The notes below the pieces were generated by a model. The model ran no database searches. It worked only from the letters and a program-made list of their open reading frames with translations, and was not told the origin of the DNA. A stretch of DNA of 64,000 nt, taken from IMG/VR virus record IMGVR_UViG_3300015608_002132, positions 49,039-113,038 of that record. One strand, 5' to 3'. The stretch is from a virus (Duplodnaviria > Caudoviricetes). A program made the position numbers and the translations under genes. Positions within the stretch are counted from its first letter, which is position 1. Every line of letters starts with the position of its first letter. Below are positions 6,641-58,651 of the stretch, piece by piece.

Positions 6641-6683
6641 TATGGTTGAGCTAGTGGAACATAACCAAGAAGAGGGGGAAGGG
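6641..6683. repeat. 43-bp dispersed repeat, copy 1
   Basis: TATGGTTGAGCTAGTGGAACATAACCAAGAAGAGGGGGAAGGG, identical to 48049..48091. Confidence 0.95.
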
Positions 6684-6706
6684 GGAGGAAAAGTAGACGC
6701 ACTTAT

Positions 6707-7057
6707 TCAAGTCAACTTACCATGAACAACGTGTACGTGGTCTTGAAGAACAAACGCCACGCGTTGGTAATACTCGAACTCCACCGGAAACAGCATCACA
6801 TAATCAGTGCCACCGTGGCTCCTCACGCCGTCTGCCTGTTGAACAAGGCTGCGATGTACCCGAATCGGATCACCGGCAACCTTGCCAACAGACCTACCCT
6901 TGACGCCACCGACCTGTTTCGGCCATGCACAGCCATTTTGGTCATAACGGATGTTGCCATGCTCGTCGCGTTCTAGATCATATACCGCTACCGTGGCGTC
7001 TGCAACTCCGTGTACGCCGTTTCCATATCCAACCTTTACAGTGTCTCCATGTGCCAT
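6707..7057 (-). CDS. hypothetical protein downstream of the chaperonin
   Basis: 116-aa, beta-rich-looking ORF with no clear GroES motif. Confidence 0.6.
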   Translation of the reverse strand: MAHGDTVKVGYGNGVHGVADATVAVYDLERDEHGNIRYDQNGCAWPKQVGGVKGRSVGKVAGDPIRVHRSLVQQADGVRSHGGTDYVMLFPVEFEYYQRVAFVLQDHVHVVHGKLT

Positions 7058-7108
7058 GATGTTGATGTCCCTTGGTGTGTAGTTGATGAAGTTTCAGTAA
7101 TATCGCAA

Positions 7109-8803
7109 TCAAGGCAACTGTCTTGCTTGTGTGTCTGCCGTAGAACACACGACACAGTTCGTTGTCAACAATAGCCCGATTACCGAGCTTGCGTGCAGAA
7201 CTGCTGCACGTTCCACCTTCAGCGGATCGATGATCCCAGCCTGGATCAGCTCACAGAAGACATGTTTGTTGGCATCGTAGCCGTACTGGAATGAAGCGCC
7301 GCGTTGAAACGCACTTGTGAGCTCGTGCATCACAACGTCTGCGCTCTTGCCGGTGTTTTCTACAATGACCCGAAGTGGCATTTTGCACGACTCAATTACA
7401 ACGCGTACGCCAGCTAGCTCGTCGTCGGATAGCTCGACGCCAAACTCCTTTGCTTGCACTGACTTTTCCAGCATGCTCGCGGCAGTAAACAGGGCGGTGC
7501 CACCTCCTGGCAAGATGCCCTCCTGCACTGCGGCAACGGTGGCATTTAGTGCGTCCTCGACTCGATCTTTCTTTTCAAAGATTTCGACTTCAGTTGAGCC
7601 ACCAACCTTGATTACGGCTACACCACCGGCCAATTTAGCCAGACGTTTGCGTGTGTTTTCGCGTTTAAGGTCGTCCGTCAAGATGCCGCTGTCCATCAGT
7701 GACTTGAGCTGCGCGGCACGTTCTTGTACGAGCTGCTTACGGCTGCCATCTTCACTTACGAGTGTTGTGGTACCGCGGCCAACAATCGCCTTCTTGCACG
7801 TGCCAAGGTCTGATAGCGTAACGTTTTCAAGGTGCTTGGCAGATCCACTGTCGATCACTGTGCCGCCAGTAACAAGTGCGATATCCGACAGCAAATCTGA
7901 ACGGTTTTCACCGTAACTCGGCGCCTTCACTGCGCATGAGTACAGGACTCCCTTCATCTTGTTAACGAGCAAGGTGTGCAGCGCCTCGCCTTCGATCTCG
8001 TCGGCGATCACTAGAAGAGGCTTGTTGGTGTTGGCTACCTGCTCCATCACCTTCAGGATCTCCTTGATGGATGTGATCTTCCGATCGGTGATTAGAACGT
8101 ATGGGTCATTGAGTTCGGCAACCAGCTTCTCTTGGTTTGTCACAAAGTAAGGCGACACGTAGCCAGATTCAAACTGCATGCCTTCAACGACATCAAGTGT
8201 TGTTTTTACACTCTTGGCTGGCTCAATCGTAATGATGCCATCGGGGCCTACTTTTGATATGGCTTCTGACAGTAGCTCGCCGATTGATCGATCACCATTT
8301 GCCGACACAGTGCCGACGTTAATGATGTCATCCGTATTGCTAACCGGTGTCGCATGATCCTTGACGAGACAGACGATCTGATTGGCAGCGACATCCATGC
8401 CGCGTTTGATGCCAATAGATGAACGTCCAGTGGCAATCATCTTGACACCCTGCGCCAGCATTGAGTGTCCAAGCACCACGGAAGTTGTTGTACCATCCCC
8501 AGCCAGTTCGTTCGTCTTGGCGGCAATTTCTTTCAACAGCTCTGCACCGATTGATGGCAGCCGATCCTTGAGATTAATTGCTTTCGCAACCGTGACGCCG
8601 TCCTTTGTGATCAGCGGTGCGGTCACGCCATTGTCGATGATGACGTTATGGCCAGATGGCCCCATTGTTGACTTTACAGCCTTGAAGAGTATCTCAGCAC
8701 CCCTCAGCAGGCCGCTGTGGGCTTCTTCGTCGAATACCACATCATCGTGCCTGTCTGTTGTTGCAGTGCTGGAAAGACCCTTACCATTATTGTTGTCTGA
8801 CAT
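7109..8803 (-). CDS. groEL: GroEL/Cpn60 chaperonin
   Basis: TMGPSG, ITKDGVTVA, AGDGTTT, EGMQFESGYVSPYF, LAGGVAVIKVG, KKDRVEDAL, GGG and IIDP. No C-terminal GGM tail. Confidence 0.96.
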   Translation of the reverse strand: MSDNNNGKGLSSTATTDRHDDVVFDEEAHSGLLRGAEILFKAVKSTMGPSGHNVIIDNGVTAPLITKDGVTVAKAINLKDRLPSIGAELLKEIAAKTNELAGDGTTTSVVLGHSMLAQGVKMIATGRSSIGIKRGMDVAANQIVCLVKDHATPVSNTDDIINVGTVSANGDRSIGELLSEAISKVGPDGIITIEPAKSVKTTLDVVEGMQFESGYVSPYFVTNQEKLVAELNDPYVLITDRKITSIKEILKVMEQVANTNKPLLVIADEIEGEALHTLLVNKMKGVLYSCAVKAPSYGENRSDLLSDIALVTGGTVIDSGSAKHLENVTLSDLGTCKKAIVGRGTTTLVSEDGSRKQLVQERAAQLKSLMDSGILTDDLKRENTRKRLAKLAGGVAVIKVGGSTEVEIFEKKDRVEDALNATVAAVQEGILPGGGTALFTAASMLEKSVQAKEFGVELSDDELAGVRVVIESCKMPLRVIVENTGKSADVVMHELTSAFQRGASFQYGYDANKHVFCELIQAGIIDPLKVERAAVLHASSVIGLLLTTNCVVCSTADTQARQLP

Positions 8804-8820
8804 GCCGCGGCCGTGCTTCC

Positions 8821-9357
8821 TTATTGTGGCTGACCTGTGAGATTGAATGTGACTTTTCTGATTGTTCCGTCCGGCATCACGACTTCATTGGAATTCGCGG
8901 CCTCTTGGAAGCGGCTTGGAGCGTTACCGGTACCGAGACCAGCGGCGTTTCCACTGTGCATGCCAACTTCACTGAGAAGCGCTCCTGGGTCAATTCTTTC
9001 AGTGTTTGGAGCGGTGCCTTGGCCGTTTAATGGCGTGTTTTGATCTCCGTACCACAAGTTGACACGCTGAGACGTTTCCTCAAGAAGATTGTCAAGGAAA
9101 CCTGTGAGCCTTGCGCTGATTACTTCACGTATTTCACCAAGGCTGCCATACACTTCACCATCGACCCTGGAGAGATCAACGATCTTTTGCCTACCGGCCG
9201 GGCCAATGGCAATCTTATAGGTGGTCATCTCACCGTTGAGGCTTTTGTGACGCGTCTCCTCCGTCACAATTCCAGGCAACACCGTAGTAGCGTTGCTGCT
9301 TAAAACGTAGATTATCTGGCCGATTGTATATTGCATGGCGAGATCACCGTGCGACAA
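8821..9357 (-). CDS. hypothetical protein
   Basis: Tightly packed minus-strand operon upstream of groEL. Confidence 0.65.
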   Translation of the reverse strand: MSHGDLAMQYTIGQIIYVLSSNATTVLPGIVTEETRHKSLNGEMTTYKIAIGPAGRQKIVDLSRVDGEVYGSLGEIREVISARLTGFLDNLLEETSQRVNLWYGDQNTPLNGQGTAPNTERIDPGALLSEVGMHSGNAAGLGTGNAPSRFQEAANSNEVVMPDGTIRKVTFNLTGQPQ

Positions 9358-9772
9358 ACGTCTTGATGGCGTTGTTTTGGTTGAGTGTCTTGGCGTAGTC
9401 TTCTGTCAGAACCAGAACAGTTTCGCTGCCATTGATCTTGCGTTGGTAAGGCGTAAAGTCCATGGTGTTCAAGCAATTACGCAGCTTGCCTTCGCTGTCA
9501 TAACCAGCGTACAAGTCGAAATAGTACATGAGCCGCTCAAAGGCAGACACATGCAATGACATCGGAATGATGTTGGATGTGGGCATATGTCTGGCGACGG
9601 CCTCAGCGATATATTGTTCGGCATCAACCAGGACCATGTCCTGGCGATCACCCACGTAGACCGCGTAACGCTTGGCCAGCAGCTTCTCACGAAGTTTACG
9701 TTCTGATGCGTGGCCACCAAAGTTGCGGCAGTCGCGAATGATCGCCTCAACGACAGACGGATGAAATCTCAC
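9344..9772 (-). CDS. hypothetical protein
   Basis: Overlapping start/stop packing with its neighbours. Confidence 0.6.
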   Translation of the reverse strand: MRFHPSVVEAIIRDCRNFGGHASERKLREKLLAKRYAVYVGDRQDMVLVDAEQYIAEAVARHMPTSNIIPMSLHVSAFERLMYYFDLYAGYDSEGKLRNCLNTMDFTPYQRKINGSETVLVLTEDYAKTLNQNNAIKTFVAR

Positions 9773-10281
9773 TGTACGTCGCCTTTCTTATCGGTGCCCT
9801 GTACGGCCCCCATCTTGACAAGTTGTTCGTAGATCTTTGCGCGTTCTTCTTGCGTTTTAAGGGCATCTGCCGCCATCTTGTTGGCATTTTCTACAACACG
9901 ATTCAGCATGTCCGTACCGTCCTTGCGCGCCTTGTCAATTGGTTTCAGCCCAAGCCCTTCACGGATCTTGTCAACCGCGACCTTCATGTCGAGCTCTGGG
10001 AATTGTTCGGCAAGTACCTCCTCGATGTACTTGAAGTCGACGTACATGTGAGGATGTGGACCATCCATTATCTCCTCTGGTCTACCACGGTCCCCGACCT
10101 CGTATTCCCCAGTCGACTTGTATTCCATCAAGAACAGACCAACTGGCATATCCTTGTCCTTTGGAATGTTGACGTATGGAATCGGAGACACACGTTCACC
10201 CGGATAGTTTGGTGACTCGTAAAGGATTTCAGGAATTGACGATAGCTTCCTGTTTGCTTTCACTTTTGCGTTGACTGTCAT
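9769..10281 (-). CDS. hypothetical protein
   Basis: Co-oriented ORF overlapping the next gene by 4 nt. Confidence 0.65.
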   Translation of the reverse strand: MTVNAKVKANRKLSSIPEILYESPNYPGERVSPIPYVNIPKDKDMPVGLFLMEYKSTGEYEVGDRGRPEEIMDGPHPHMYVDFKYIEEVLAEQFPELDMKVAVDKIREGLGLKPIDKARKDGTDMLNRVVENANKMAADALKTQEERAKIYEQLVKMGAVQGTDKKGDVQ

Positions 10282-10311
10282 GTTGTATCCTGCGTATCCT
10301 TCTTATCTTGT

Positions 10312-10527
10312 TTAGTCGTTGCCCAGGTTGATCACTGTGGATTTAATGCTTGTTGGAATACCGCGCACTGGGATAAACCATCGTCGTTCTACCACGTGCG
10401 GTGGCAAGGCTTGCTTGTCTGTTTCGGTAATACCAAGAGCCTGTCGCACGCTAGCGATATACTCGCCTACATCTTGCGTTGGGATGCCATCAACGTTGAC
10501 ATAAAACGTTGTTTGCAAGAGCCTCAC
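10312..10527 (-). CDS. hypothetical protein
   Basis: Start overlaps the stop of the upstream gene. Confidence 0.55.
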   Translation of the reverse strand: MRLLQTTFYVNVDGIPTQDVGEYIASVRQALGITETDKQALPPHVVERRWFIPVRGIPTSIKSTVINLGND

Positions 10528-10823
10528 ATGTCCTCGCTTACGTCACCTTCAAGGACGCGAAGAAACAGGTCGAAGTAGTGCTTGTGCTGGACTTTCTTTT
10601 TGAGATCGACCAGTTTAAGCGCCAGCTTCAGGGTCTTGGTGTCGAGCTTTTTTGAGTATTCGTCGACCAGCTCCTTCTTTTGCTCACGAAGCTCGGCCTC
10701 TTCGTTTTCGAGCTGCCTCATCCTGTCAACAAACTCAACCACGATTGGTTTAAGGTCGTTGATGTTCTCCGGCATTGCGTCGGCATCGTCGAGTTCCGCT
10801 TGCTTCTTGTTGTACCTTGCCAT
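10524..10823 (-). CDS. GapR/DUF2312 or T4 DsbA-like dsDNA-binding protein
   Basis: LKPIVVEFVDRMRQLENEEAELREQKKELVDEY..KLDTKTLKLAL resembles the helical GapR/DsbA pattern. Confidence 0.6.
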   Translation of the reverse strand: MARYNKKQAELDDADAMPENINDLKPIVVEFVDRMRQLENEEAELREQKKELVDEYSKKLDTKTLKLALKLVDLKKKVQHKHYFDLFLRVLEGDVSEDM

Positions 10824-10967
10824 GATGTGCTCCGTGTTGCTTTGTGCTGTTCCTCTCTTCGTAGTTGATCGAAGTGAGAAAACACAGCTAGCAGCATGGT
10901 CTGTGGGGCAACGGTATATTGTATAGCATCACACAGCCGAACGGCTGGTCGTGATTGTCGTTAAAGT

Positions 10968-12122
10968 CTACTGTAGCTTGGCAGCCGACGCTGTTGCCAC
11001 AGATGAAATCTTGGCTTGTGCGGTCTTGCTTGCCGAACTGGTCGCGAGCTTTTTGGTACGCATGATCTGGTTCATGCTCGCCGATGCCATCTTACCAGCG
11101 TTCGTCCTGTAAGCCGCCAACTCTTGTTGTGTAACTGGCAGTTTTCCAGTCTTAACACCGCTGGCAATGTCATTGTTGATGCGTGTAAAGATCGACGCCG
11201 CCGCTGGTAGTGACCTCTCCATAAAAGACTTTTCACCAGCAAGGCCGTCGTCGGATGAAGCGGCGCCAACCATGATCTCACGAGCAGCAGAGGCGAAGTC
11301 GTTGCCATACTTTTGCTGCAACCTGTCGATCAGTTCCTTGTCGAGCTTCGGAACGCCGCCGCCAAGGCCCTCCATAATCGATTTTGGGGCGGTGCTGCGA
11401 TAGATGGCAGAAAACCCAGGAACACCACCAACACGCCTTAGATAATCCTTATGGCGAACATAGTCACCAAGAGTGCCTGGGTCTCTTATGTCTGGTTCTT
11501 CAATCAGCCGGTTGATGACGTGTCCAACGACGCCGCCAGATATAACGTTGGCAATAGACAAGGCTGCATCAATTCCACGCCCGGCCGCAATTGAGTTTGT
11601 TAGCACACTATAAGGAGCCAAGAAGAACCCAAACCCCATCAGGTCTGGCTTGATCGCGTTCCACCCGGAATCAAACCCTGACAGCTCGGCTTCAAACTGT
11701 TGGTTGATAGCCTTCATCGCCGTCTGTTCCCAGTGCAACATCTTCTTGCCGATGTACTCGACGGCAACCGGGTTGTTAAACGGCAGCATGGCTGCGAACG
11801 TGCCACCAATCAGTGTGCCAACGGTGGATACCAGCTGGGTACCGAGCTTCGCTGCGCCGCGCTTTAAGATGTTCCAGATGTCCCGCATTGCGGTAAATCC
11901 CATTGCACCGAACAGGCCCTTGCGATCCCACATGCTGCCAGTCGGTCCAGTGTTATAGCCACCACCGCCTGACCCATAGTTCGGATCAACGCCGTAGCCA
12001 TCCTCATATCCAGGATCGCCACCAAACTGTTCAACCAACGCCATGTCAATCTCTTCCGAGATCAGTGCTTTGAGCACGTTGGCGCGGGCCTCTCTTAGCT
12101 TTTCGGCGTTACTTCTTGTCAT
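10968..12122 (-). CDS. hypothetical protein (possible virion internal protein)
   Basis: 384 aa with a KALISEE leader, a Gly-rich segment and hydrophobic stretches. Confidence 0.65.
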   Translation of the reverse strand: MTRSNAEKLREARANVLKALISEEIDMALVEQFGGDPGYEDGYGVDPNYGSGGGGYNTGPTGSMWDRKGLFGAMGFTAMRDIWNILKRGAAKLGTQLVSTVGTLIGGTFAAMLPFNNPVAVEYIGKKMLHWEQTAMKAINQQFEAELSGFDSGWNAIKPDLMGFGFFLAPYSVLTNSIAAGRGIDAALSIANVISGGVVGHVINRLIEEPDIRDPGTLGDYVRHKDYLRRVGGVPGFSAIYRSTAPKSIMEGLGGGVPKLDKELIDRLQQKYGNDFASAAREIMVGAASSDDGLAGEKSFMERSLPAAASIFTRINNDIASGVKTGKLPVTQQELAAYRTNAGKMASASMNQIMRTKKLATSSASKTAQAKISSVATASAAKLQ

Positions 12123-12475: not shown

Positions 12476-12513
12476 GATTGCTAAGTATCCAAGAGAGAAG
12501 CGCTGACAGATAT

Positions 12514-24507: not shown

Positions 24508-26214
24508 ATGGTATCACCTACCAACCACAACATAAAAAAGTCAATCGTGTCAATCGACCCAAAAGTCACCGACAAAGCAGCGGTTGTCGTGACAGGAACG
24601 TGGCCGTCAAAGCAGACGGCAATCGAGGCAGGATATGTCGGTGTCAAGAGGTCGATCACAGACCTTCAAGAACGGTCCAGATTGACTTATACGGGCGGCA
24701 AACTGTTTGTTGAGACAGAGTGGCTTGCGAACAATTCGGATCGACTGCTCGGCATTCTGGGAGCTTCTGTGCCGTGTCTTGTGTGTGGTTTGAGGTTCGA
24801 CAACGACAAGCGCAAGCTCGCAGCACATATCCAGGTAAGTCATGCGATGACAAGCCAGGACTACACGGTCAGGTATGTACTTGGCGGCGTAAAGCCAGTG
24901 TGTGCGTTCGATGGATGTGACAATACTCCCAGGTACGCATCATTTGAGTTCAATCAGTATTGCAAAGAGCATGCAACCGTTGCAATGGCGAATGGCGGTT
25001 CTGTTGGAGGAAAAGCCGCCTCGTGGAACAAGGGCAAGACCAAAGCCACCGACGACAGGATTATGCGGCATGCCATGTCGGTGACGGGCATAGGTAACCC
25101 ATTCTATGGAAAGAAACACACGCCAAAGGTCGTAGAACAGCTCTCAGCCAAGAGAAGGCTAACCGAACAAGAGGTTAGATTTAGGTTGTCTGCTCGCGGT
25201 AATGACTTTACCTACCCAGGCTTTTCATATGAGGAGTACGCGTCTAGACAGTTCGACAAGGTCCTTGTTGAATGCGTTGTGTGTCATAACCAAGAGTTTA
25301 AGACTCTACAAGTGATCGAGAGAGGGTCGCTGTGTAAGGTATGTCATCCGTTCTTTGTATCACAAGATGAGATAAAGATTGGTGACTACATTCAGAACGA
25401 GCTAATGCTAACAGTGGTAAGGAATGACAGGTCTGTCATCTCTCCACTGGAACTAGACGTATATGTTCCAGACAAGGCGTTTGCTGTTGAGTTTAACGGC
25501 TTATACTGGCATTCACAAACCCAAACTGACAAGAACACACACAAGACCAAGACTGACAGGTGCAAGGCCAAAGGCATATCGCTGTTTCATGTGTTCTCTG
25601 ACGAGTGGGACAAGAACCAGTCGTTGATTAAATCGATGATTGCCGCCAAACTCGGCTTGACACCAAACCGGATTGGCGCCAGAGAGCTTGATGTTTCTGA
25701 TGTTGCTTTTCCTGTCAAGCTGCGAGAGTTTTTTGATGCGTCTCACATATCCGGCTATGTCAAGTCGACTCATGGGTTCGCTTTGACAGACCCAAACAAC
25801 AACAATGATGTGGTGTGCGCCTTGATGTTGCGCAAGCCCATCATTGGAAAGAAGTACAATGGGCTCGTTGAGATCTCAAGGTTTGCCACCAAGCCTTTCA
25901 CTCACGTATCCGGTGGGTTCGGAAAGCTGCTCAAGGCGGCAGAGCAGTGGTGCAAGCAGCAAGGGTTTGATGGGCTCTTGTCCTACTGCGACCTGAGGTT
26001 CGGTGGCGAAGGTTCCTTGTATGAGAAGACAGGGTTCGACAGGGAACGTGATACTGGCTTGAACTACTGGTACACGGACGGACGTGTCAGGTACGACCGC
26101 TTTAAGTTCCGTGCCAGAGATGGAAAGTCTGAGAACGAAGTTGCCACGGAAGCCGGTGTGCGCCGCGTATACGGGTGCGGCAATGCAGTGTATATCAAGA
26201 GGCTCGCCGTCTAG
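24508..26214 (+). CDS. Hef-like multidomain endonuclease (Zn fingers, NUMOD3, PD-(D/E)xK/Vsr-like nuclease, GNAT/Mom-like C-terminus)
   Basis: CLVC..H...H, NPFYGKKH, ELDVYVPDKAFAVEFNGLYWHS, EISRFA...GGFGKLL and SYCDLRF..G.LYEKTGF. Confidence 0.75.
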   Translation: MVSPTNHNIKKSIVSIDPKVTDKAAVVVTGTWPSKQTAIEAGYVGVKRSITDLQERSRLTYTGGKLFVETEWLANNSDRLLGILGASVPCLVCGLRFDNDKRKLAAHIQVSHAMTSQDYTVRYVLGGVKPVCAFDGCDNTPRYASFEFNQYCKEHATVAMANGGSVGGKAASWNKGKTKATDDRIMRHAMSVTGIGNPFYGKKHTPKVVEQLSAKRRLTEQEVRFRLSARGNDFTYPGFSYEEYASRQFDKVLVECVVCHNQEFKTLQVIERGSLCKVCHPFFVSQDEIKIGDYIQNELMLTVVRNDRSVISPLELDVYVPDKAFAVEFNGLYWHSQTQTDKNTHKTKTDRCKAKGISLFHVFSDEWDKNQSLIKSMIAAKLGLTPNRIGARELDVSDVAFPVKLREFFDASHISGYVKSTHGFALTDPNNNNDVVCALMLRKPIIGKKYNGLVEISRFATKPFTHVSGGFGKLLKAAEQWCKQQGFDGLLSYCDLRFGGEGSLYEKTGFDRERDTGLNYWYTDGRVRYDRFKFRARDGKSENEVATEAGVRRVYGCGNAVYIKRLAV

Positions 26215-31110: not shown

Positions 31111-32379
31111 ATGCCGACACCCTCAGCCACATTCAATACCACGCTAAGGCCAACACCGTTTGGTTTTTATGACCGATATACGCTGTTCCAGCAAGATGCT
31201 GACAACATGACGACATTCGTCCTTAGAATGCTCGGCGAAGACGTGCTTGGTGTCGAGTTAACGAAGCCCATGATCTGGTCTTGTTTTGAATCGGCCACCC
31301 GTGAGTTCAACGGGATGATGATCGAGTATCAAAACAAGTCAAACCTTGCTTCGCTACTGGGCATGCCAACCGGCAGCCTTGATGCAAACGGCAACAACAG
31401 CATCAACGTCACCAACATGTACGTGCAGCAGAACCTTGAGTTTCTCAGTGCGCTCGCCGCACCATATGCTGGTATTGTCGGTTATTCCCAAGCGGAGCAA
31501 ACGTATACTGGCTACATCTCACTAACCTCAGGCCAACAAGAGTACGACATCTACGACAGCCTCGTCGATGTTAGTGGCTCAAACCTGTTCGCCCAACAGC
31601 CTAGCGGCTCTGTGGGCGGGATGGAGGTTGTCGAGGTGTTTCACTCGGCCCCCGCACAATATCTCTTCAACAGCAACCTTGCTTCAAACTTTGTGGCCAC
31701 AGGGCTGCCTGTCGAGTCGTATATCCCTGATACGCGATTTTACGTTCTGCCGTTGTTTGAGGATGTTCTGCGTGGAGAGATGCTGAAGGAGGCGCAGAAG
31801 GTCAGGCGCTCACACTTCAGCTACAAGATCTCCGGTAGGAAGATACGGATCTACCCGACGCCGAACAACCTGAGGCCAGGGTACAACGACCGACTGTGGC
31901 TCAGGGTCAGGTTTGCTTCGTCACCGTTTCCTTCTATTGCCTCAACGATTGTCAATTCGGGATCGTCGTATAGCCCATCTGGGACAGGGTCTGGCGCGTC
32001 GTATCAGGAAGATAAGATATATGGCGCCAACAGCCCATTCAACACCCCATATGGGCCTCTGAACTACAATTCATTGAACATGTGGAGCCGTAACTGGATA
32101 GCTCAATACACACTGGCCCTAAGCACGGAATTGCTTGGCAAGGTGCGAAGCAAGTTTACCAACATTCCGATCCCGAATGCTGAGTTGCAGCTTGATGGTG
32201 ACAACCTGCGAACTCAAGGCCGAGAAGACAAGGAAAAGCTGATCACGGCGCTACGAGAAACACTGGAGGGTTTGACATATGACAAACTGGCCGAGATGGA
32301 GGCATCAAAAGCCGAGCAGATGGTCAAACAGCTGTCATACGTACCGATTCCGCCGAAATACAGTATTGGCATATTCTGA
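31111..32379 (+). CDS. neck / head-tail adaptor protein (gp13-like)
   Basis: LRMLG..VLGVELT, IRIYPTP, WIAQYTLALS.ELLGKVRSKF..IP and LDG, plus its position in the gene order. Confidence 0.8.
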   Translation: MPTPSATFNTTLRPTPFGFYDRYTLFQQDADNMTTFVLRMLGEDVLGVELTKPMIWSCFESATREFNGMMIEYQNKSNLASLLGMPTGSLDANGNNSINVTNMYVQQNLEFLSALAAPYAGIVGYSQAEQTYTGYISLTSGQQEYDIYDSLVDVSGSNLFAQQPSGSVGGMEVVEVFHSAPAQYLFNSNLASNFVATGLPVESYIPDTRFYVLPLFEDVLRGEMLKEAQKVRRSHFSYKISGRKIRIYPTPNNLRPGYNDRLWLRVRFASSPFPSIASTIVNSGSSYSPSGTGSGASYQEDKIYGANSPFNTPYGPLNYNSLNMWSRNWIAQYTLALSTELLGKVRSKFTNIPIPNAELQLDGDNLRTQGREDKEKLITALRETLEGLTYDKLAEMEASKAEQMVKQLSYVPIPPKYSIGIF

Positions 32380-32400
32380 TTGCCGAGATGAGGTAACCAA

Positions 32401-33123
32401 ATGGCTAGACTGTTCATAGGACGACGTGAAATTCAGTTCATCAACGACCTGACAAAAGAGTTTATCAAGGATGTTGTCGGGCAAGTGATTCATTATTTCC
32501 CTGTGTCCGTTATCAAAAGCAGGGTGCACGGGCTGTACAACGAGTCAACAGAGAAGGTGTTTGACAACCCAATCAAAGTGCCAGCTTTGGTAGGACAACC
32601 GGAATGGTCAAGCAAGACAACGTCATTTGGCCCAGACCTGGAATCCCGTCTTGAGGTTATGATTCAAGCAAGAGACCTTGCCGATAAAGGCATCAAGCTA
32701 TCGGAAGGCGACATGTTCACGTTCGACGATGTGCTGTATGAGATTTTGACGTACGTCAACATGAACAACATATTCGGCATGGCCGAGTACGACGTGTCAT
32801 GGAAGATAACGGCCAAGTCTGCACGCCTCGGTCAGATGGATCCAGCATCGATTCCACTACCCAGAAAAGCACCAGATGGCGAACAGGTCGTGTTCGAGCA
32901 ACAGAGAGGGTTGCCCATCACGAGTGATGGGGAAGCCACTGGCGATATCAGAGAAATGCGCCAACGTCTATCAAAAGACATGGCGCCCGTTGCTCTTGGT
33001 ACCGGCGCTAGAAGGGTTGAGCCAAACACCGGCGATGATGGTGACTTCATCCAGGGCTCTGATGCATCTTCATTTAACAATGACCCTCCTCCTCCAAAGA
33101 AGGGCATATATGACGACGAGTAG
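32401..33123 (+). CDS. neck protein (gp14-like)
   Basis: LYNES..KVF and EGDMF...YEI, between the gp13-like and gp15-like genes. Confidence 0.7.
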   Translation: MARLFIGRREIQFINDLTKEFIKDVVGQVIHYFPVSVIKSRVHGLYNESTEKVFDNPIKVPALVGQPEWSSKTTSFGPDLESRLEVMIQARDLADKGIKLSEGDMFTFDDVLYEILTYVNMNNIFGMAEYDVSWKITAKSARLGQMDPASIPLPRKAPDGEQVVFEQQRGLPITSDGEATGDIREMRQRLSKDMAPVALGTGARRVEPNTGDDGDFIQGSDASSFNNDPPPPKKGIYDDE

Positions 33124-33155
33124 TATGTTTGCTAGTTAACACATGACAAAACGCC

Positions 33156-34385
33156 ATGCCTGATAGCAACTCCAACAATTCTACGAGGCAAAGCGTACCA
33201 CTACAACCAGAAGGCGTCGAGCAGCTACCCACCGGATATGCCGTTGATGGCAACGACCCGTCAACGTTCTATATTCCTGCTTGTGGTTTAGAAGATGTCG
33301 ACACGGCAGTTCGTGACTTGTTCGACAAGGACATGAAGTTTCGTGATTACCAGTCAGTAGCTGGAGCCCAAAAACAGATCAACCTCAAAAAGCCACCGGT
33401 GATCTTCGCGGCCGGTGAGAGGTTTGCTCTTGCTAAGGCATTGAAGCCGTTCCGTGATAGAAACGGCGTGCTGACTCCACCGATAATCTCTATTCGACGC
33501 ACCGGGCTCGAACAGCAATCGTCTGACACCTTCCTTGGAGAACTTACTATCAAGAAGCGATTAGATGGCGGCGACAAGGATTACCAACAGCTGCTTAATC
33601 GTCTTCTATTGAAACACGGGCCTACTCCTGTGCCAAGCAGTCTAAGGACATCTGTGGGCGCCAGTGCCGGGTTACCATCAATTCGCGCCGGTATGCTTCT
33701 TGATGACACCGACCCACGACTCATGTCAGACCACGTTTACGAGGTCATCAAGATACCATTTCCTCAATTTTTTACAGCAACGTACGAGATAACCTATTGG
33801 ACCAGCTATACGTCGCACATGAACTATCTCGTGCAGACAACCCTGGCCAACCAGATGGCTCCTGGCAAGGGGTTCTATCTCAAATCTGATAAGGGATACT
33901 GGTTTACAGGCATTTTGGACGAGGCAATCAACTACAACGACAACTTTGATGATATGACCGACGAGGAGCGCATCATCAAAAACACGTTCACTATGAAGGT
34001 GCGAGGTTTCCTTTTGGCTTCTCAAGGGCCTGGGCAACGTGTGCCATTCAAACGATACCTTTCGGCCGTAAACATATCATTTGAGACTGTGTCATACGAT
34101 GGTGATGTGCAGGAGCTGGCCGATTCCGAACGGTATCAAGGTACCAAATCGGGCAAAACTAGCACAAGCGCGTTTGTCCTGTCAGATATTGAACAGGCAT
34201 CGACCAAACAGAAACCAACCGTGAAAGACAGGTTCTTGTTTCGTCGTGAGACGATCGACCGTACCACAGGTGCGCGCAGTACCCAATATGTTCGTCAGAC
34301 GGATTCAAACGAGAAACAGGGCGAGACCGTATACACGGCCTCCGATGAGATAGCTCTGGCCCAGTTCTTCCTCGATCGAAAATAG
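33156..34385 (+). CDS. tail terminator / sheath stabilizer (gp15-like)
   Basis: LEDVD.AV, GERF, PIISIRR, YEITYWT....MN and RIIKNTF, immediately upstream of the sheath genes. Confidence 0.7.
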   Translation: MPDSNSNNSTRQSVPLQPEGVEQLPTGYAVDGNDPSTFYIPACGLEDVDTAVRDLFDKDMKFRDYQSVAGAQKQINLKKPPVIFAAGERFALAKALKPFRDRNGVLTPPIISIRRTGLEQQSSDTFLGELTIKKRLDGGDKDYQQLLNRLLLKHGPTPVPSSLRTSVGASAGLPSIRAGMLLDDTDPRLMSDHVYEVIKIPFPQFFTATYEITYWTSYTSHMNYLVQTTLANQMAPGKGFYLKSDKGYWFTGILDEAINYNDNFDDMTDEERIIKNTFTMKVRGFLLASQGPGQRVPFKRYLSAVNISFETVSYDGDVQELADSERYQGTKSGKTSTSAFVLSDIEQASTKQKPTVKDRFLFRRETIDRTTGARSTQYVRQTDSNEKQGETVYTASDEIALAQFFLDRK

Positions 34386-47520: not shown

Positions 47521-47802
47521 TCAAGGAATTATGACGTAGTAGTCGTCGCTACCCGGAGGCATGACCGGTGTCAGTGTAACGCTGCCGGTAATTTCATCAA
47601 AAGTCAATTGGAAATTGAGATACCATACAGGATCTCCACTAATGTATTTCATATCTTCGACTATTGATTTGAGATGTGCCAGCATTGAATGTTCAAGGCA
47701 TTGAGTCATGTGTTCATAAACATATACTTCTGACAATTTATCGATAAGATATGTTGCTGCAATTGTAATATCATCTTCTTTAAGAAATACTTTTCTGCTC
47801 AT
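47521..47802 (-). CDS. AT-rich hypothetical protein
   Basis: 93-aa ORF with markedly lower GC than its flanks. Confidence 0.6.
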   Translation of the reverse strand: MSRKVFLKEDDITIAATYLIDKLSEVYVYEHMTQCLEHSMLAHLKSIVEDMKYISGDPVWYLNFQLTFDEITGSVTLTPVMPPGSDDYYVIIP

Positions 47803-47828: not shown

Positions 47829-47857
47829 ATCTTAGACCGATCGGGTCGTCAAGTCAA
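47829..47857 (-). promoter_or_regulatory. sigma70-like promoter
   Basis: Minus strand reads TTGACT-N17-TAAGAT. Confidence 0.55.
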
Positions 47858-48048: not shown

Positions 48049-48091
48049 TATGGTTGAGCTAGTGGAACATAACCAAGAAGAGGGGGAAGGG
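48049..48091. repeat. 43-bp dispersed repeat, copy 2
   Basis: Identical to 6641..6683. Confidence 0.95.
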
Positions 48092-48130
48092 CAAGGATTA
48101 AAACCAAGCAGGTTACTTAATCTCCAACAC

Positions 48131-48847
48131 ATGCACACACATGCTTTAAGCGAAGGTATCTTCGATTCAATTGTGTCCAGACTTAGCACCAAGCAGGCCA
48201 TTACCATTCCACGTGGTAATCAGCAAGCAATAAAGACACCGATTCCCGGTAGCAGGCAAGACCGAGCCATGTCGATGCAGCGGATGGCAGGGAGCGTTGG
48301 TCAAGATACGACTGATTCGATTGCACACAGGCAGGCCATGAGCGGCGTTATCGCGGTCGTGTTGGAGCGCCCGGAGATCATAAAGCGAGTCTGGGGTATC
48401 TCGGACCCGGCACAGCAAAAACAGTTGTTCGTTGGTGCGTACGACCCAACTACAAGACAACAATCAATCGCGCGAATACTCAGAGGATTTAGGTCGCTGT
48501 TTTGTGGTGAAAGCAATCTACAGGCTAGCGAATGGATCAAAGTGTTAAACATTGCCGACCAGCTTTCCAGAGACGGTTTAATCAATAGCTCTGTTGTTGA
48601 TAGCCTATCAAAACTGTACAAGTTTCATATCAATGGCCAGAGCACACCAGAGATCCGGCAGTCTATTCAGCGATACTGTGTTTCAGAGGGGGCGATCACC
48701 ATTGAAGGCTTGTTGTATGGTTGGCCACTAAAAGAGTCCGGGCCTTCTGGCCAGGGCCTTGGGTCGTATGACGAGAGGATGGACGTACCAACTTCACTAG
48801 ACTCGCTAGATGATGGCAATACAACTGGCATCCCCGATCGCAGCTAA
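48131..48847 (+). CDS. hypothetical protein
   Basis: TACTTA at 48114 favours ATG 48131 over 48050. Confidence 0.65.
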   Translation: MHTHALSEGIFDSIVSRLSTKQAITIPRGNQQAIKTPIPGSRQDRAMSMQRMAGSVGQDTTDSIAHRQAMSGVIAVVLERPEIIKRVWGISDPAQQKQLFVGAYDPTTRQQSIARILRGFRSLFCGESNLQASEWIKVLNIADQLSRDGLINSSVVDSLSKLYKFHINGQSTPEIRQSIQRYCVSEGAITIEGLLYGWPLKESGPSGQGLGSYDERMDVPTSLDSLDDGNTTGIPDRS

Positions 48848-52470: not shown

Positions 52471-52716
52471 ATGAGGTTGATGCTAAAGAACAGTACTGGC
52501 AAAGTCAGTGTATCGTACACCATGATGGTGTATACATTTGCCGTCAGTCTATTGTGGTACGCCGTTTCGATTATCAACGTCCCACATATCAGGCCATTTG
52601 ACGCGGCTACTGCAACCGGGTTTCTATCGCCTCTCCTGGCGCTGTACTTCTCAAGGAAGTGGTCTGATGGGAAAACGGCAGCCGGTGCGGTGAGCACCAC
52701 TCCGACGGATCAATAA
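52471..52716 (+). CDS. small 2-TM membrane protein (holin-like)
   Basis: Two hydrophobic helices in 81 aa, with a Met-Arg-Leu-Met start. Confidence 0.5.
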   Translation: MRLMLKNSTGKVSVSYTMMVYTFAVSLLWYAVSIINVPHIRPFDAATATGFLSPLLALYFSRKWSDGKTAAGAVSTTPTDQ

Positions 52717-53441: not shown

Positions 53442-53513
53442 ACTTCCATATTCTCCCTGGTTTGTCGTAGTTATTGTGGACCATTAGGTGGTCAGAAAGC
53501 CAAGTCCATCATC

Positions 53514-53963: not shown

Positions 53964-54027
53964 TACAACCTAAACCTAAACAGTCGTTCGTCGATGCCTC
54001 CATAGTTGTATGTGGAGGTATTCGTAC

Positions 54028-54831
54028 ATGTCTCTTATTATCAATGAATCAAAAGTCACTGTCCCAGGTGTTGCTACAACATCGTGGCACGATAGCAATC
54101 AGCTTAAGCAGGTAACAGACAAGAACGCCCGATCAGCATGGATTCGAGGCATTGTTTGCCATTCCGTGCATGGGAAACTAGGCCGACTGTTGCCTGGAAC
54201 GGGGCAGGCAGGGCTTGCTAAGCGTTATGCGAACTATCAGACCAACACAGACCGCTATGTCTCCTGGGACTACACGTGCGATCTCGACGGATCGTGGCTT
54301 GTTCAGAATGACCCGCTAAAGTATTACACGTGGCATGCGACGGCTGTAAATCCAATCACCGTTGGATTCGAGTTGGCTCAGCTTGATAACGGTGACATGT
54401 ACGATGAACAGATAAAGAAGGCTGTACTGTTTGTCGACGCGCTTACGGCACTGCTTGGAGTACAGAGACAAATCCCATGGGACTTCAAGAACGACAAGCC
54501 GTGGCTTGGGCAGGTCAACAGGATAGCTGGCAGTCAGGCCGGTAGGGACGTTGTTGGTATCTACGCGCACGTCAATCAGACAAACAACCGCGGTCCAGGC
54601 GACCCCGGCCCATGGTTGTTTTACGCCCTCCGCGATGCTGGGTATAAGTTGTTTGACTATGACAAAGGCGAGGACAAACTGTTCTGGGAAGAACAACAGC
54701 GAAAACTTGGGTTTGTAGATTGCGATGGCGTTGCCGGACCACGAACCGTAAGCGCCTTAAAGGCAAGTGGGTATGCACATGGTATGATTGTGCATAGACC
54801 CATCGACGATCAACTAGTTGTTGGCGGGTAG
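54028..54831 (+). CDS. N-acetylmuramoyl-L-alanine amidase (endolysin) with a peptidoglycan-binding domain
   Basis: IVCH, TWHA, VGFE, YAH and GDPG, plus a C-terminal DGVAGPRT..AL. Confidence 0.85.
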   Translation: MSLIINESKVTVPGVATTSWHDSNQLKQVTDKNARSAWIRGIVCHSVHGKLGRLLPGTGQAGLAKRYANYQTNTDRYVSWDYTCDLDGSWLVQNDPLKYYTWHATAVNPITVGFELAQLDNGDMYDEQIKKAVLFVDALTALLGVQRQIPWDFKNDKPWLGQVNRIAGSQAGRDVVGIYAHVNQTNNRGPGDPGPWLFYALRDAGYKLFDYDKGEDKLFWEEQQRKLGFVDCDGVAGPRTVSALKASGYAHGMIVHRPIDDQLVVGG

Positions 54832-55087
54832 AACTGACGGAGATGTTATGATATGGGTATCCATTGAAAAGGTGTATGTTAAACGCAAGGACGGCTATTA
54901 CCAGGAGATCATCAATCACTTGGTTCATATCCGGGATGCTGCCGGTAACGTGCAGACCAAGCTAGACAGATCGGTCGTCGGTGACGTGTATACGGAGAAC
55001 ACCACTCATAACAGTTTTGGTGGTGTTGTGGTGATTCAAGACGAAAACGGAAACGATAAGAGGCTGGTCGCCACTAGGCTAGGGTGA
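54818..55087 (+). CDS. hypothetical protein
   Basis: Short ORF after the amidase. Confidence 0.5.
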   Translation: MLAGRTDGDVMIWVSIEKVYVKRKDGYYQEIINHLVHIRDAAGNVQTKLDRSVVGDVYTENTTHNSFGGVVVIQDENGNDKRLVATRLG

Positions 55088-55090
55088 CTG

Positions 55091-55432
55091 TCAGCCGTTA
55101 CCAATCAACAGCTTTTTTGCACCGTTCATGGTTCCTTCGGTCACGATGACCTTGGTTTGCTGAGTGTTAACCACAGTGCTAGCCTCTCCCACCGCTTTGG
55201 CTACTCCAATCATTGCTTCTCTGTTTTCCAGCTCAAGCGCCAGAAGATAGATCAGGTATAGTTTTTGGCGTTGACTCACACCAAACTCGTTGATCGTTTT
55301 CACGATCCCGCGGCATTCATTGCGTTTGTCTTTTGACAGCTGTGTCTCGATATAGTTTGGCTTGACATACGACTCGCCCTCAACAGGCTCGTCTGTTAGC
55401 ATGCCATTATCGCTGCTATTGGTGTCACTCAT
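55091..55432 (-). CDS. hypothetical protein
   Basis: Part of a minus-strand cluster; GGAG upstream. Confidence 0.65.
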   Translation of the reverse strand: MSDTNSSDNGMLTDEPVEGESYVKPNYIETQLSKDKRNECRGIVKTINEFGVSQRQKLYLIYLLALELENREAMIGVAKAVGEASTVVNTQQTKVIVTEGTMNGAKKLLIGNG

Positions 55433-55446
55433 TTTCCATTACTCCA

Positions 55447-55905
55447 TCACAAGTCCCTTGAAGACATAGTCGTTAGCTTCCACAGTGTCTTTCCATACAA
55501 CACCAAAGCCTTGACGTGCACATCATCACCATCGGTTTCTTTTTCTAGTATGATTGCCTGACCCCACTGGTCATTGTCATACAGGAACCGCACCTCTTGC
55601 CACGTTACGAGGTCTGGATTGTATGGCATCAATGCTTCAACCAGCCTGTTCGGCAGCTGGCTCTTGACTTCGTCGACCGTTTCAAGCAGCGCTGTCGATT
55701 CCTTCTTTAGCTTTTGCGAAACGCCTACCTCGGTGATGCTGTGCAGGCCGCGACAGTTGTTGCAGCTTGCCACGGACGGCTTCACAACACCATCGTCGTC
55801 TATTACGGAAAACACCACAAACTTGTGAAACACCGGTGGATATCGATCCAGGAACTGAGGCAGGATGCAGTTACATTCGATCAGGTGCTTAGCGTACGTA
55901 GGCAT
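55447..55905 (-). CDS. putative Zn-binding protein
   Basis: CNC and CNNC...H. Confidence 0.65.
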   Translation of the reverse strand: MPTYAKHLIECNCILPQFLDRYPPVFHKFVVFSVIDDDGVVKPSVASCNNCRGLHSITEVGVSQKLKKESTALLETVDEVKSQLPNRLVEALMPYNPDLVTWQEVRFLYDNDQWGQAIILEKETDGDDVHVKALVLYGKTLWKLTTMSSRDL

Positions 55906-55983
55906 ATGAGATACTCGCTATTGCTAGTAAAGCTGCGAACAGCATCGCGGCTGTTTTGACGCCTTTGCCCGTAACGGTTGTTG

Positions 55984-56331
55984 TCAGGCGACCGTAACCG
56001 CTACGGCTTTTGGGCGACGAGCTGTCTGCGCCATACTGGATCCTGGATCGCCACCGACCCGGACCTGCTCTGTAGGGTTTTCCTCACCTACATACGCATC
56101 GAGCTCTGACTTGATGTTGGCGTGAAATGCGTCAATGTTGTTCATCTCAATCTCTGAGATGATCACTTGCATGGTCTTTAGGAGTTGATCGAGCACGTGC
56201 GGCTCTACCGGGAGCTGCTGTTTACGTGCGATCAGCTGCAACCGGTCATACGTCTTCTCTGAGATTGAGTTGACGAGGCGGTGGACTTCCATTTCGATCT
56301 TTGTGTCAAGTTTTACGCGATTGTTGCTCAT
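55984..56331 (-). CDS. hypothetical protein
   Basis: AGGA upstream. Confidence 0.6.
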   Translation of the reverse strand: MSNNRVKLDTKIEMEVHRLVNSISEKTYDRLQLIARKQQLPVEPHVLDQLLKTMQVIISEIEMNNIDAFHANIKSELDAYVGEENPTEQVRVGGDPGSSMAQTARRPKAVAVTVA

Positions 56332-56587
56332 GGTTTCCTGGTTGGTGATACGTGTCGATCTTCGATCATCTCGTCATCACTTCGCAACTTACATTATGCC
56401 ATTACGCTGACTTTGTGTTTGGTGCTGCGCTCAGCCATGGCCGATATTAAATCATCACCAAGCCACCAGGAGTCGATTCTAGGCGCTGAAATGGTTTGGA
56501 CGATGATTCCCGCCACAGCGCATTTGGCGCCACGCAATGGCTTGTTTTATTCGACTGTGGCCATGAATAGTTAGACACACAACAGCC

Positions 56588-57217
56588 ATGTCAACACCGA
56601 GACAGACAGTCGCCACCAAGCACAACAACCACAAGTCGTCACTCATCAGAGCGACGCAGGCTTTGATGGAGCATGGCATATATCCGATCGAAGCACTCAC
56701 GATTGACAACAGGCTCGCAGTGAGGATTGCGTCCGATCTGGTCAAGCTGGAAGAGGCATTGGCGCCTTATGCAGACACATGTAATACGCTAACAACGTTT
56801 GCACGGCTGAACAGCGATCGGCTGATCAATGAAAGTATTGCTAGCAAAGAAGTCAATGCCAACAAGATCAACCTCTCAATGATCAACTGTGTGATCTTGT
56901 CGGAGGGTATTGGTAAGTTCATATACCCTGCCGTAAGCAAGATTGTTGCGGCTTCCAAGAACGCGGCCTCAGAAACTATCGAATGCCGCTATGGGGCCGA
57001 CGGAGTAAAGCTGTTGGAGTTTTGTCTGTGGCAAAGCCCAGCGATCAAGCTGCTTAACGAGTCCGAAGACATGAAGGTCGTGTTCAGGTCGATCGCTGAG
57101 GAGTTGAGCCGCCTGCCCATCAGCAAGTTGCAATCGTTGGCAGAGTCTGTGCCGGATATCGACCTGTTTGTGAGTTCGGAACTTCACCGCAGGCTTGCTA
57201 ATTCACTGCGCGCATAA
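56588..57217 (+). CDS. hypothetical protein
   Basis: TAGTTA at 56568. Confidence 0.65.
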   Translation: MSTPRQTVATKHNNHKSSLIRATQALMEHGIYPIEALTIDNRLAVRIASDLVKLEEALAPYADTCNTLTTFARLNSDRLINESIASKEVNANKINLSMINCVILSEGIGKFIYPAVSKIVAASKNAASETIECRYGADGVKLLEFCLWQSPAIKLLNESEDMKVVFRSIAEELSRLPISKLQSLAESVPDIDLFVSSELHRRLANSLRA

Positions 57218-57220
57218 CAG

Positions 57221-58651
57221 CTACGCGGCCACCACAGAACCACCGGCAGTAAAGTAAATGGCAGCTAGTTTGGCTGCGTGTGCCGCTGCAATAGGCAGCA
57301 TCTGCGATGGTACATAAGCCAGGGCCGTGAGGTCATCGGTCATTGATCGATGCATTGACTGCCAAAGCGCAGACAACCCATGAATCTGCCGGTGATCGCA
57401 GGCAAACTCCGACGACAGAAGACCATAGGTCAACACTGATCGGTAGCTGCGAATACCATTATCCAGTTCAGCACTGACCGCCTTCATCATACCGTGTGGT
57501 ATCCCAACCCTGACCGTGTGACTCAGGAGGTTCTGAATGCGTTTTGTCGTCAGGTCAGCGATATCTGAGATGCAAGCATCACTTGCCTGCTCTCTGCGTC
57601 GCTCATTCAAGTAAGCCAGGTGAGTCATGACTGATTTTCGTGTCCTGTCATTCCTGACCGTCATGACATTCTTGGTGATGCTCAGCTGTTCAACCAGCGG
57701 AAACGCATCAAAGTCTGCGTATATGAGGAGATCACCTTTGAGTGTGTTTATCACATCACCACCACACACGACAGCAATATCGTTAAGCATGTTTAGAGAT
57801 TCTAGTGACTGCTCAAGCCTCAGAGGCATGATGTCAAAGCTGTTGCGTGAGTTGTTTGCGTGTATGGTGCCAATGACCTCCTCGGAGAATCCCTGTGCAA
57901 TCAGCACGAGCGGGATTTTAGTATCGAAAGCCCTTCGCAGAACACGGTCAAGCTCTGACACCTTCTCAATCATGCCATCCACCAACATAACTTTGCTGTT
58001 CGTCCTAGACCAGCTGCTTGTTCCTGTGATGCCGCTTCCAACTAGACCTTTGAATGGGTTAACCTTGAAGTTATAGCCAAATCCCAGCTCAACACTCATG
58101 ACCTGCGAATGCTGCTCCTCCTCAAGTCTTATCACACCATCTAGTCCAGCCAGATAAACCGCTTCCTTTACGGCGGTACGTACAAGTGGAGATGTTTCTG
58201 GCGGTATGAACAGGTCGCCCTTGGCCAGTTCATCGCTTGTCGCTGGTCGCGCGTAGTTCATTAGCAGGTTGTTATACCTCCGCTCCTCTTCTTGGTTATG
58301 TTCCACAAGCTCACCATATCCCATGTTGTGCTTGCTCTTGAGCAACTCACTGGCGTAGCCATGGAATCCTCGAATAAAACAGTAACCGGCACCATGGCAC
58401 TGGATCTCCAGCTTGTAACTCGTCTGAATAAGCTCATCAAAGAGCATTTTCATATGTCTGTCCGACTTGTCGCCGTCTGATACGGCTCGCACCATGTTGG
58501 TTAGTAGTTGATAGGAGCCGCGACACAGGTACGACCCGTTTTCGTTTATCGCAGATTCGACCGCTTCAAGCGATTGATTTAGTAGCTTTATTGCCGTGTA
58601 TAGCCGCTTCCGAGTCGAATCTTCGTCCACAAATATAGTGATCATCGTCAT
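57221..58651 (-). CDS. divergent GroEL-like chaperonin paralog lacking the ATP-binding motif
   Basis: VMLVDGMIEKVSEL..VL......PLVLIA.GFSEEV and LNDIAVVCGGDVI resemble the GroEL apical domain; EAVYLAGLDGVI and KRIQNL also align; no GDGTTT. Confidence 0.65.
   Translation of the reverse strand: MTMITIFVDEDSTRKRLYTAIKLLNQSLEAVESAINENGSYLCRGSYQLLTNMVRAVSDGDKSDRHMKMLFDELIQTSYKLEIQCHGAGYCFIRGFHGYASELLKSKHNMGYGELVEHNQEEERRYNNLLMNYARPATSDELAKGDLFIPPETSPLVRTAVKEAVYLAGLDGVIRLEEEQHSQVMSVELGFGYNFKVNPFKGLVGSGITGTSSWSRTNSKVMLVDGMIEKVSELDRVLRRAFDTKIPLVLIAQGFSEEVIGTIHANNSRNSFDIMPLRLEQSLESLNMLNDIAVVCGGDVINTLKGDLLIYADFDAFPLVEQLSITKNVMTVRNDRTRKSVMTHLAYLNERRREQASDACISDIADLTTKRIQNLLSHTVRVGIPHGMMKAVSAELDNGIRSYRSVLTYGLLSSEFACDHRQIHGLSALWQSMHRSMTDDLTALAYVPSQMLPIAAAHAAKLAAIYFTAGGSVVAA
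58285..58318 (-). repeat. imperfect third copy of the 43-bp repeat inside a CDS
   Basis: Minus strand reads TATGG-TGAGCTTGTGGAACATAACCAAGAAGAGG (1 indel, 1 mismatch, 22-bp exact core). Confidence 0.85.

Follow-up and report, generated by a model that had tools for sequence, protein, structure and literature searches.

A 15-base box with a purine-rich tail recurs across a clade of uncultured giant phages

A 64,000-nucleotide (nt) stretch of a virus of the class Caudoviricetes (hereafter the window; bases 49039-113038 of the 113-kb IMG/VR record IMGVR_UViG_3300015608_002132) carries a short dispersed repeat, one copy of which lies inside a gene related to groEL. The original prediction, made from these letters alone, had proposed RNA cross-talk between two chaperonin genes, a protein-binding site, or a tiny mobile element. 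Our analyses show that the common part of the copies, a box of roughly 15 bases with a purine-rich tail, is a clade-wide cis-element of uncultured giant phages and is not specific to chaperonin genes. The record is estimated to be 33% complete, which, at 113 kb, implies a jumbo phage of ~340 kb.

Anatomy and distribution of the box

As originally described, a 43-mer occurs identically at 6641-6683 and 48049-48091, on the (+) strand in both cases, where 0 such repeats are expected (100 shuffles); the likeness between these two copies extends to 49 nt (47/49 matches). An inverted arm at 58285-58313 is 97% complementary to the repeat, and the whole inverted near-copy (58285-58318), read by hand, matches it exactly over a core of 22 nt and otherwise departs by 1 mismatch and 1 indel. 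Copy 1 (6641-6689, +), with the box GTGGAACATAACCAA at 6654-6668 and a polypurine tail at 6669-6689, is intergenic, between genes at 6345-6614(-) and 6707-7057(-), and is antisense to both of these minus-strand neighbors. Copy 2 (48049-48097, +; box 48062-48076, purine tail 48077-48097) occupies a divergent spacer, with 47521-47802(-) on one side and a (+) gene run on the other. Copy 3 (58271-58318, -; box 58292-58306) is sense and in frame within an open reading frame (ORF) at 57221-58651(-), where it translates as YGELVEHNQEE. The original assignment of this 476-aa ORF to a GroEL paralog is confirmed by profile (PHROG 5725, E=1.9e-14), BLASTP (7e-07 against the GroEL of the window) and PDB (GroEL chains, 1e-08) matches, which identify it, at the level of sequence, as a true but diverged GroEL homolog. 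With a fourth copy at C1:17804-17831, beyond the window, the 113-kb record (G000) holds at least 4 copies of the box.

The copies have in common an asymmetric box of 15 nt, which in this lineage reads GTGGAAsAyAACCAA. A TA usually stands before it, and a run of 15-25 purines always comes after it. In a logo over 25 copies (45 nt), information resides only in the box and the purine tail, and the conserved unit including the tail spans 30-45 nt. Exact 18-22-mers of the core were found in other IMG/VR and Joint Genome Institute (JGI) viral and metagenome contigs with guanine-plus-cytosine (GC) contents of 37-54%. Five related records were fetched for comparison: G001 (163 kb, GC 54%, a fragment 44% complete), G002 (34 kb, GC 39%), G003 (260 kb, GC ~39%), G004 (241 kb, GC 46%) and G005 (305 kb, GC 43%, complete with terminal repeats). 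Related IMG/VR jumbo-phage contigs (GC 35-54%) have 10-15 copies in each genome, in many cases at orthologous positions, with 12 in G003, 15 in G004 and 12 in G005, and the box is among the most over-represented dispersed 11-12-mers of each genome. Because the same box is present in independent assemblies of other samples, the repeat is not an assembly artifact, a source that had been considered at the outset. The core had no exact match among 185,579 prokaryote genomes, and a host-derived sequence or a target of clustered regularly interspaced short palindromic repeats (CRISPR) was rejected on this ground; the box sequence had no match in the searchable literature, and no cultured relative was found in the phage collection (no megablast match, GroEL matches at <60% identity, no match for the paralog). 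The box offers a clean marker for the clade.

Three variants of the box exist, GTGGAACAT..AA, GTGGAGGAT..AG and GTGGAACCT..AT. Nearly all sites in G004 read GTGGArGATwACCAG followed by AAGAGGGATCCAAG, nearly all in G005 read [G/A]TGGAACCTwACCAT followed by AGAAGAGAGAAGAAGG, and each of these two variants recurs in several independent contigs. Sites inside genes carry the variant of their own genome, so that the paralog of G004 reads VEDNQK. Beyond the box, flanks are common to the copies of one genome and missing from their positional orthologs: the flank TATGGTTGAGCTA of copies 1 and 2 matches TATGGTGAGCTT of the paralog copy, and the copies of G001, that in PolA included, have the flank CTACGGACsAGCTA, which shifts the reading frame in PolA. 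Such co-variation within genomes, together with the common flanks, indicates that each genome has a single reader, that its copies undergo gene conversion, or that both apply.

Gene-order comparison across the genomes was used to pair copies by position. Copy 1 pairs with sites at 180612 in G003 and 219953 in G004 and with sites in at least 8 further GroEL-bearing contigs (including L037-L048). In these relatives, at least 10 in all, groEL is without exception followed, after a few hundred bases, by the site on the opposite strand, and the ATG of a conserved gene for an 88-89-aa protein is 3-39 nt from the box; the antisense geometry originally noticed downstream of groEL is thus real and has been kept. 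Copy 2 pairs with G003 222568(+) and with a diverged copy at G002 31968(-), upstream of a SOD-like gene; copy 3 pairs with sites in the paralog genes of G002, G003, G004 and three other contigs; and the copy beyond the window pairs with G003 150812, adjoining the start of a DnaE-type DNA polymerase gene. This orthology of positions holds between the GC-rich G000/G001 and the AT-rich G002/G003/G004, where proteins around the sites are 35-65% identical, spacers are unalignable and GC differs by ~15 points. The neighbors of the box include DnaE, the 89-aa gene followed by primase and SbcCD, a PurZ-like synthetase and, as a site inside the gene, PolA. In G005, three tandem copies lie upstream of an operon ending in DnaE, and the box is oriented relative to DnaE opposite to its orientation in G000 and G003.

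This distribution bears directly on the idea that copy 1, carried on a groEL-operon read-through transcript, is an antisense regulator dedicated to the mRNA of the GroEL paralog. In favor of such a model, at least 10 relatives have copy 1 antisense and downstream of groEL, and at least 7 have the paralog copy, yet at least 10 other loci per genome carry the box beside unrelated neighbors, nothing singles out this pair, and none of the 12 copies of G005 lies downstream of groEL or in a GroEL paralog. We regard a dedicated regulator of this kind as highly improbable, and RNA cross-talk between the two chaperonin genes is unsupported in the form first proposed, the box being genome-wide and clade-wide. 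A small RNA starting at copy 1 was also ruled out, as there is no conserved hairpin or terminator.

Selection on nucleotides inside genes

Synonymous-site conservation at 58285-58318 among homologs had been named at the outset as a test of function, and its outcome is positive. In a codon alignment of seven GroEL-paralog orthologs, with GC contents at third codon positions of 0.30-0.55, no 15-, 18- or 21-nt window has more invariant bases than the one at the box (14/15, with 11/15 the best elsewhere). The alignment has 140 invariant columns occupied by amino acids with degenerate codons; a single codon is used in 9 of them, and 4 of these 9 are the V, E, N and Q of VEHNQ. In PolA, four genomes have the box at one place, in the stretch that separates the K-S-L-E-P block from the D-I-Y block, but it is read in phase 0 in G001 (VEHNQ) and in phase 1 in G003 (SGTQP), G004 (CGGLP) and G005 (SGTLP). 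A baseplate-adjacent gene for a 527-aa protein carries the box on its antisense strand (LGYVPL), with identical codons in G001, G003, G004 and three metagenome contigs; the G005 ortholog has unrelated residues at this place. In-gene copies fall in variable linkers between conserved protein blocks. Because PolA uses two frames and the box is the most nucleotide-conserved stretch of the paralog, selection acts on DNA or RNA and not on the peptide. The ATG of a hypothetical coding repeat or leader peptide (MVELVEHNQEE...) is also missing from other copies, and this absence, together with the two PolA frames, led to the rejection of that candidate. In this clade of uncultured jumbo phages, the signal overrides coding constraints, with the same letters kept in different frames and on either strand, and it offers a natural case of a cis-signal and a protein sequence sharing one DNA.

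The same data can be set against a selfish or near-neutral short repeat, spread and homogenized by gene conversion and tolerated in spacers and variable loops. The lineage-specific flanks within a genome (the 43-nt identity of copies 1 and 2, TATGGT(T)GAGCT in common with the paralog copy, CTACGGACsAGCTA in G001) and the location of in-gene copies in variable linkers agree with such an origin, but it would have to accommodate orthologous positions kept across deep divergence and a 15-point GC shift among unalignable spacers, as well as synonymous sites frozen in 7 orthologs. Terminal repeats, target duplications and a transposase are lacking, and gene-order breaks show no significant excess at the copies (G003 versus G004: 3/5 motif junctions non-adjacent, against a background of 179/246). 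We therefore give this explanation little credence. For the tiny mobile element of the original prediction, the part that stands is the lineage-specific flanking sequence, a mark of concerted evolution or gene conversion; mobility itself does not fit positions that are ancient and orthologous and that show no transposon hallmarks.

A proposed transcription signal and the competing explanations

Tentatively, we read the box as the recognition site of a phage-encoded, sequence-specific factor controlling transcription. Its nucleotide-level conservation, genome-wide co-variation, orientation independence and preference for spacers at gene 5' ends argue for a trans-acting reader, and with the enrichment in promoter-bearing spacers, they make a protein-binding site the best supported of the classes first proposed. 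The excess of divergent over convergent spacers and the replication-gene neighborhood, in turn, favor transcription control. The reader would presumably be a protein and the process transcription, with the factor acting at initiation and the box serving as operator, activator site or class-specific promoter signal. Such sites would form a class distinct from host-type TTGACT early promoters and from TA[G/C]TTA boxes, and would mark a dispersed, non-late gene set whose members include DnaE, PolA, the GroEL paralog and the primase operon, among others. Gene conversion among copies would account for the 43-nt identity of copies 1 and 2 and for the flank in common with the paralog copy, and ahead of a gene in the forward direction, the purine tail may double as a Shine-Dalgarno sequence. 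Should the reader prove to be a transcription factor, the phage would have a third gene class beside the host-type TTGACT and TA[G/C]TTA classes, and the defined 15-45-nt motif can be used to seek that reader.

The placement of 52 copies in six genomes was classified on our own simple codon-score gene calls, which may miss small genes. Spacers make up 24% of the sequence and hold 26/52 copies (P=5e-5), and divergent spacers (1.9% of the sequence) hold 7 copies as against 0 in convergent ones (2.1%; P=0.006), although these P values overstate independence because orthologous copies are counted in several genomes, a first point that weakens the transcription reading. Co-directional spacers contain 9 sense and 10 antisense copies, and ORFs contain 16 sense and 10 antisense copies. 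A start codon 3-75 nt off the reverse side of the box is about as frequent as one 13-76 nt off the forward side, and for copies with a gene ahead of them on the forward side, the purine tail occupies the Shine-Dalgarno position.

Several further observations weigh against control of transcription. No reader protein was identified. The symmetry of the box is limited to TGG/CCA, with no real dyad, and the conserved unit with its purine tail, kept even inside PolA, exceeds the length of a simple operator. Roughly half of the copies fall within ORFs, a large share if they are operators; some are 3-15 nt from a start codon, which fits a promoter, leader or repressor site but not an upstream activator; and the box keeps no fixed distance to TA[G/C]TTA or to TTGAC-type hexamers (TTGACw). 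The spacing of the copies is also more even than random in the three large genomes (coefficients of variation 0.55, 0.55 and 0.45; P=0.04, 0.016 and 0.008), which fits a structural or replication role as well. The long purine-tailed unit, the many in-gene copies, the even spacing and the triple cluster of G005 thus keep rival explanations alive.

TA[G/C]TTA occurs 35 times in G000, and 23 of the 35 occurrences are ≤70 nt upstream of called starts (~1 expected), many of them 8-30 nt from the ATG; it is a real upstream box that stands alone, with no second conserved element, and looks like a T4-style single-box promoter class (examples between 12400 and 63000 of the window are 48114-48119, 56568-56573 and 58671-58676). 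Host-type TTGACT-N17-TAAGGT promoters are present too. Promoter scans around copies 1 and 2 found no -35/-10 hexamer pair over the repeats and no terminator-like site, and the 45-nt logo contains no second element at the fixed 16-18-nt spacing of a sigma-70-family promoter. The -35/-10 pair TTGACT-17-TAAGAT at 47829-47857(-) is a sigma-70-like promoter for 47521-47802(-), so the repeat is not needed as the promoter of that gene. RNA polymerase (RNAP) beta was not detected in the five genomes searched, nor was a T7-type RNAP (PF00940) in G000-G005, the complete G005 included, in a search whose positive control gave no match either. A sigma-70 region-2 gene exceeded the cut-off in G000, G003, G004 and G005, with a weaker second match in G004, and none was found in the 44%-complete G001 fragment. 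From these results, transcription appears to rely on a modified host enzyme. Sites for sigma-54, extracytoplasmic function sigma factors, integration host factor, CtrA, DnaA (DnaA box), boxA, AR9-type promoters and Escherichia coli Chi were compared by eye only, and none holds for every lineage; a resemblance of GCTAGTGG to Chi is confined to G000 and G001.

Among known systems, class-specific phage signals such as the T4 MotA box of middle promoters, T4 late TATAAATA and the 23-nt T7-type promoters keep a fixed orientation and distance to the transcription start, and replication genes are typical middle-class genes. Like these signals, the box is spread over the whole genome and would label one class of genes and evolve together with a reader; like T7-type promoters, it is contiguous and of similar size (~20 nt). 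It differs in pointing either way, in standing 3-76 nt from start codons or deep inside ORFs, in belonging to a phage that already has a separate single-box motif, and, from the T7 type, in that the search for a polymerase of that type, whose control gave no match, detected none. The promoter-early stem-loop (PeSL) cassettes of T4-type phages consist of sigma-70-type -35/-10 promoters with a G/C stem-loop terminator and lie only in hyperplastic regions, oriented upstream of ORFans (PMC2839356, PMC4122927). Like them, the box is a short conserved cassette, regulatory in appearance, present in many copies in a large phage genome, mostly in spacers near gene starts, homogenized within the genome and able to act as a homology patch; unlike them, it has neither -35/-10 hexamers nor a conserved hairpin, its orientation is mixed, half of its copies are inside conserved ORFs and, in the comparison of G003 with G004, it shows no clear excess of gene-order breaks.

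A different kind of site, unrelated to promoters, would be one at which the box and its polypurine tract mark evenly spaced entry points for replication or recombination, whether as initiator-binding boxes, multiple origins, R-loop or polypurine primers, strand-specific nicks of the T5 type or anchors of genome organization. We consider this a minority possibility that deserves to be taken seriously. It agrees with the regular spacing, with an orientation independent of gene direction, with the strict strand asymmetry and purine-only tail kept inside ORFs, and with copies that adjoin DnaE, primase and PolA, including the triple tandem near DnaE in the complete G005. Sites within coding regions are also normal for origins, parS and Ter. 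On the other hand, the 7 copies in divergent and 0 in convergent spacers point to gene 5' regions, most sites have no AT-rich unwinding element or iteron array, and the strand order in G003 (- + + + - - + + + - + -), equally mixed in G005, gives no Ter-like or Chi-like polarity. Reverse transcriptase (PF00078) was not found in five genomes, in a search whose control was positive. A diversity-generating or other retroelement repeat was likewise rejected, given the lack of PF00078, the shortness of the repeat and its many loci.

Two known systems illustrate what DNA sites of this kind may look like. DnaA boxes and iterons are asymmetric, lie in either orientation, and occur clustered at one place as well as singly near or inside genes; their initiator also acts as a transcription factor. 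The association of the box with replication genes and the triple cluster of G005 recall them, but 15 nt with a purine tail is neither a 9-mer nor a 19-22-bp iteron array, the sites are mostly single, and no initiator gene, origin or unwinding element was identified. The reverse strand of the box, TTAT-GTT-CCAC, resembles TTATCCACA but has three extra bases intervening. Tus-Ter sites and T5 nicks are like the box in being asymmetric sequences of ~20 nt, dispersed at ~10 per genome and sometimes within genes. Ter sites are grouped in two blocks of opposite orientation and T5 nicks are restricted to one strand, whereas the strands of the box alternate without pattern in G003 and G005.

One bolder version of such a role is that the box and polypurine tract, instead of being a promoter or operator, are evenly spaced strand-specific entry sites (nicks or persistent purine-rich R-loops) that prime replication and/or load a sliding clamp across at least 300 kb; given the T4-style TA[G/C]TTA promoter and the split sigma factor, they could serve late transcription as hard-wired "mobile enhancer" loading points. 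We hold this to be quite unlikely. If the sites were nicks, R-loops or origins, they would represent a new mode of organization for a very large phage genome.

The purine tail also invites an explanation at the RNA level, in which a translational regulator binds the forward form as a 5' leader or operator, or in which forward and reverse copies pair between mRNAs as a perfect duplex of 21-43 bp and couple their fates, the pairing of a groEL-operon read-through with the paralog mRNA being one case. The tail is suitably placed as a Shine-Dalgarno sequence 13-40 nt before an ATG in many copies (G003 150812 and 222568, G001 12215, most G005 copies), sense-forward and sense-reverse copies are both present in every genome, and the 30-45 nt common to copies of one genome would lengthen the duplex. 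We nevertheless judge the RNA-level explanation unlikely. In at least 10 genomes, a copy runs antisense to the genes on either side, and another is antisense within a structural gene; both would require antisense transcripts. In PolA and the paralog, there is no start codon for the copy to control, and pairing alone leaves the fixation of the same box across lineages unexplained. Folding found no hairpin common to six orthologous copy-1 regions, and no tRNA or Rfam element was found at box sites, with no Rfam match at the gathering threshold in the whole window.

Genes beside the copies and further observations

Between copy 1 and the canonical phage groEL (7109-8803, -) lies a conserved gene for a 116-aa protein (6707-7057, -). 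A gene of this kind (116-117 aa) directly follows phage groEL in every relative examined, and its product, which has no Pfam or PHROG match, may be a chaperonin partner. A (+) ORF at 6722-6976 was discarded as a target of copy 1 and is spurious, because it is the overlapping 116-aa gene on the opposite strand that is conserved. On the other side of copy 1 is the conserved gene for the 88-89-aa protein (6345-6614, -), whose ATG is 39 nt from the box on its reverse side in the window and 3-28 nt away in relatives, and which is followed in gene order by primase and SbcCD. The AlphaFold model of the 89-aa protein is confident (pLDDT score 88.8) and has one long helix packed on a four-stranded sheet, with no informative fold match (Foldseek best E 0.14; VIA best Z 4.3) and nothing convincingly similar in the PDB; as the model matches no known DNA-binding fold, the protein was set aside as a DNA-binding reader of the box. 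In the same gene run, 2050-5268(-) encodes an SbcD-like phosphoesterase and an SbcC-like SMC ATPase fused in one 1072-aa ORF.

At copy 2, a longer (+) ORF from 48050 begins within the repeat. A TACTTA member of the TA[G/C]TTA boxes at 48114-48119(+), 37 nt after the copy-2 box, stands 11 nt before an ATG at 48131, which suggests a later true start and a probable extent of 48131-48847(+) for the gene. The copy-2 ortholog adjoins a PurZ-like adenylosuccinate synthetase gene, which matches a PHROG family labeled "2-aminooxy adenylosuccinate synthetase" (G003 221388-222494, that is L138:1388-2494(-); G002 32018-33160; G004 185398-186567). Some relatives may thus modify adenine in their DNA; the genome of the window is without a PurZ-like gene at this place.

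A partial match to the box, CATAACCAAGA at 25281-25295 in the structural module, misses the GTGGAA half and is probably due to chance. Arrays of 15-nt tandem repeats (GGGAGCGAACC... or GAGGTTTGCAC...) are present near contig ends in three records (G000 C1:about 5180-5420, beyond the window; G001 162980-163480; G002 33800-34145) and may be coding repeats or genome-end structures. Gene calls with genetic code table 11 cover 67-73% of G005, as compared with 76-87% of the other records at a stricter score cut-off, and this low coverage could mean that small genes are numerous, that the caller is weak or that the genetic code differs. Near the GroEL paralog, 59270-59563(+) encodes a 97-aa protein with a histone-H1-like Hc1 match (E=8.6e-06), and 59697-61118(+) encodes a PIN-PhoH fusion protein adjoining the divergent neighbor of the paralog.

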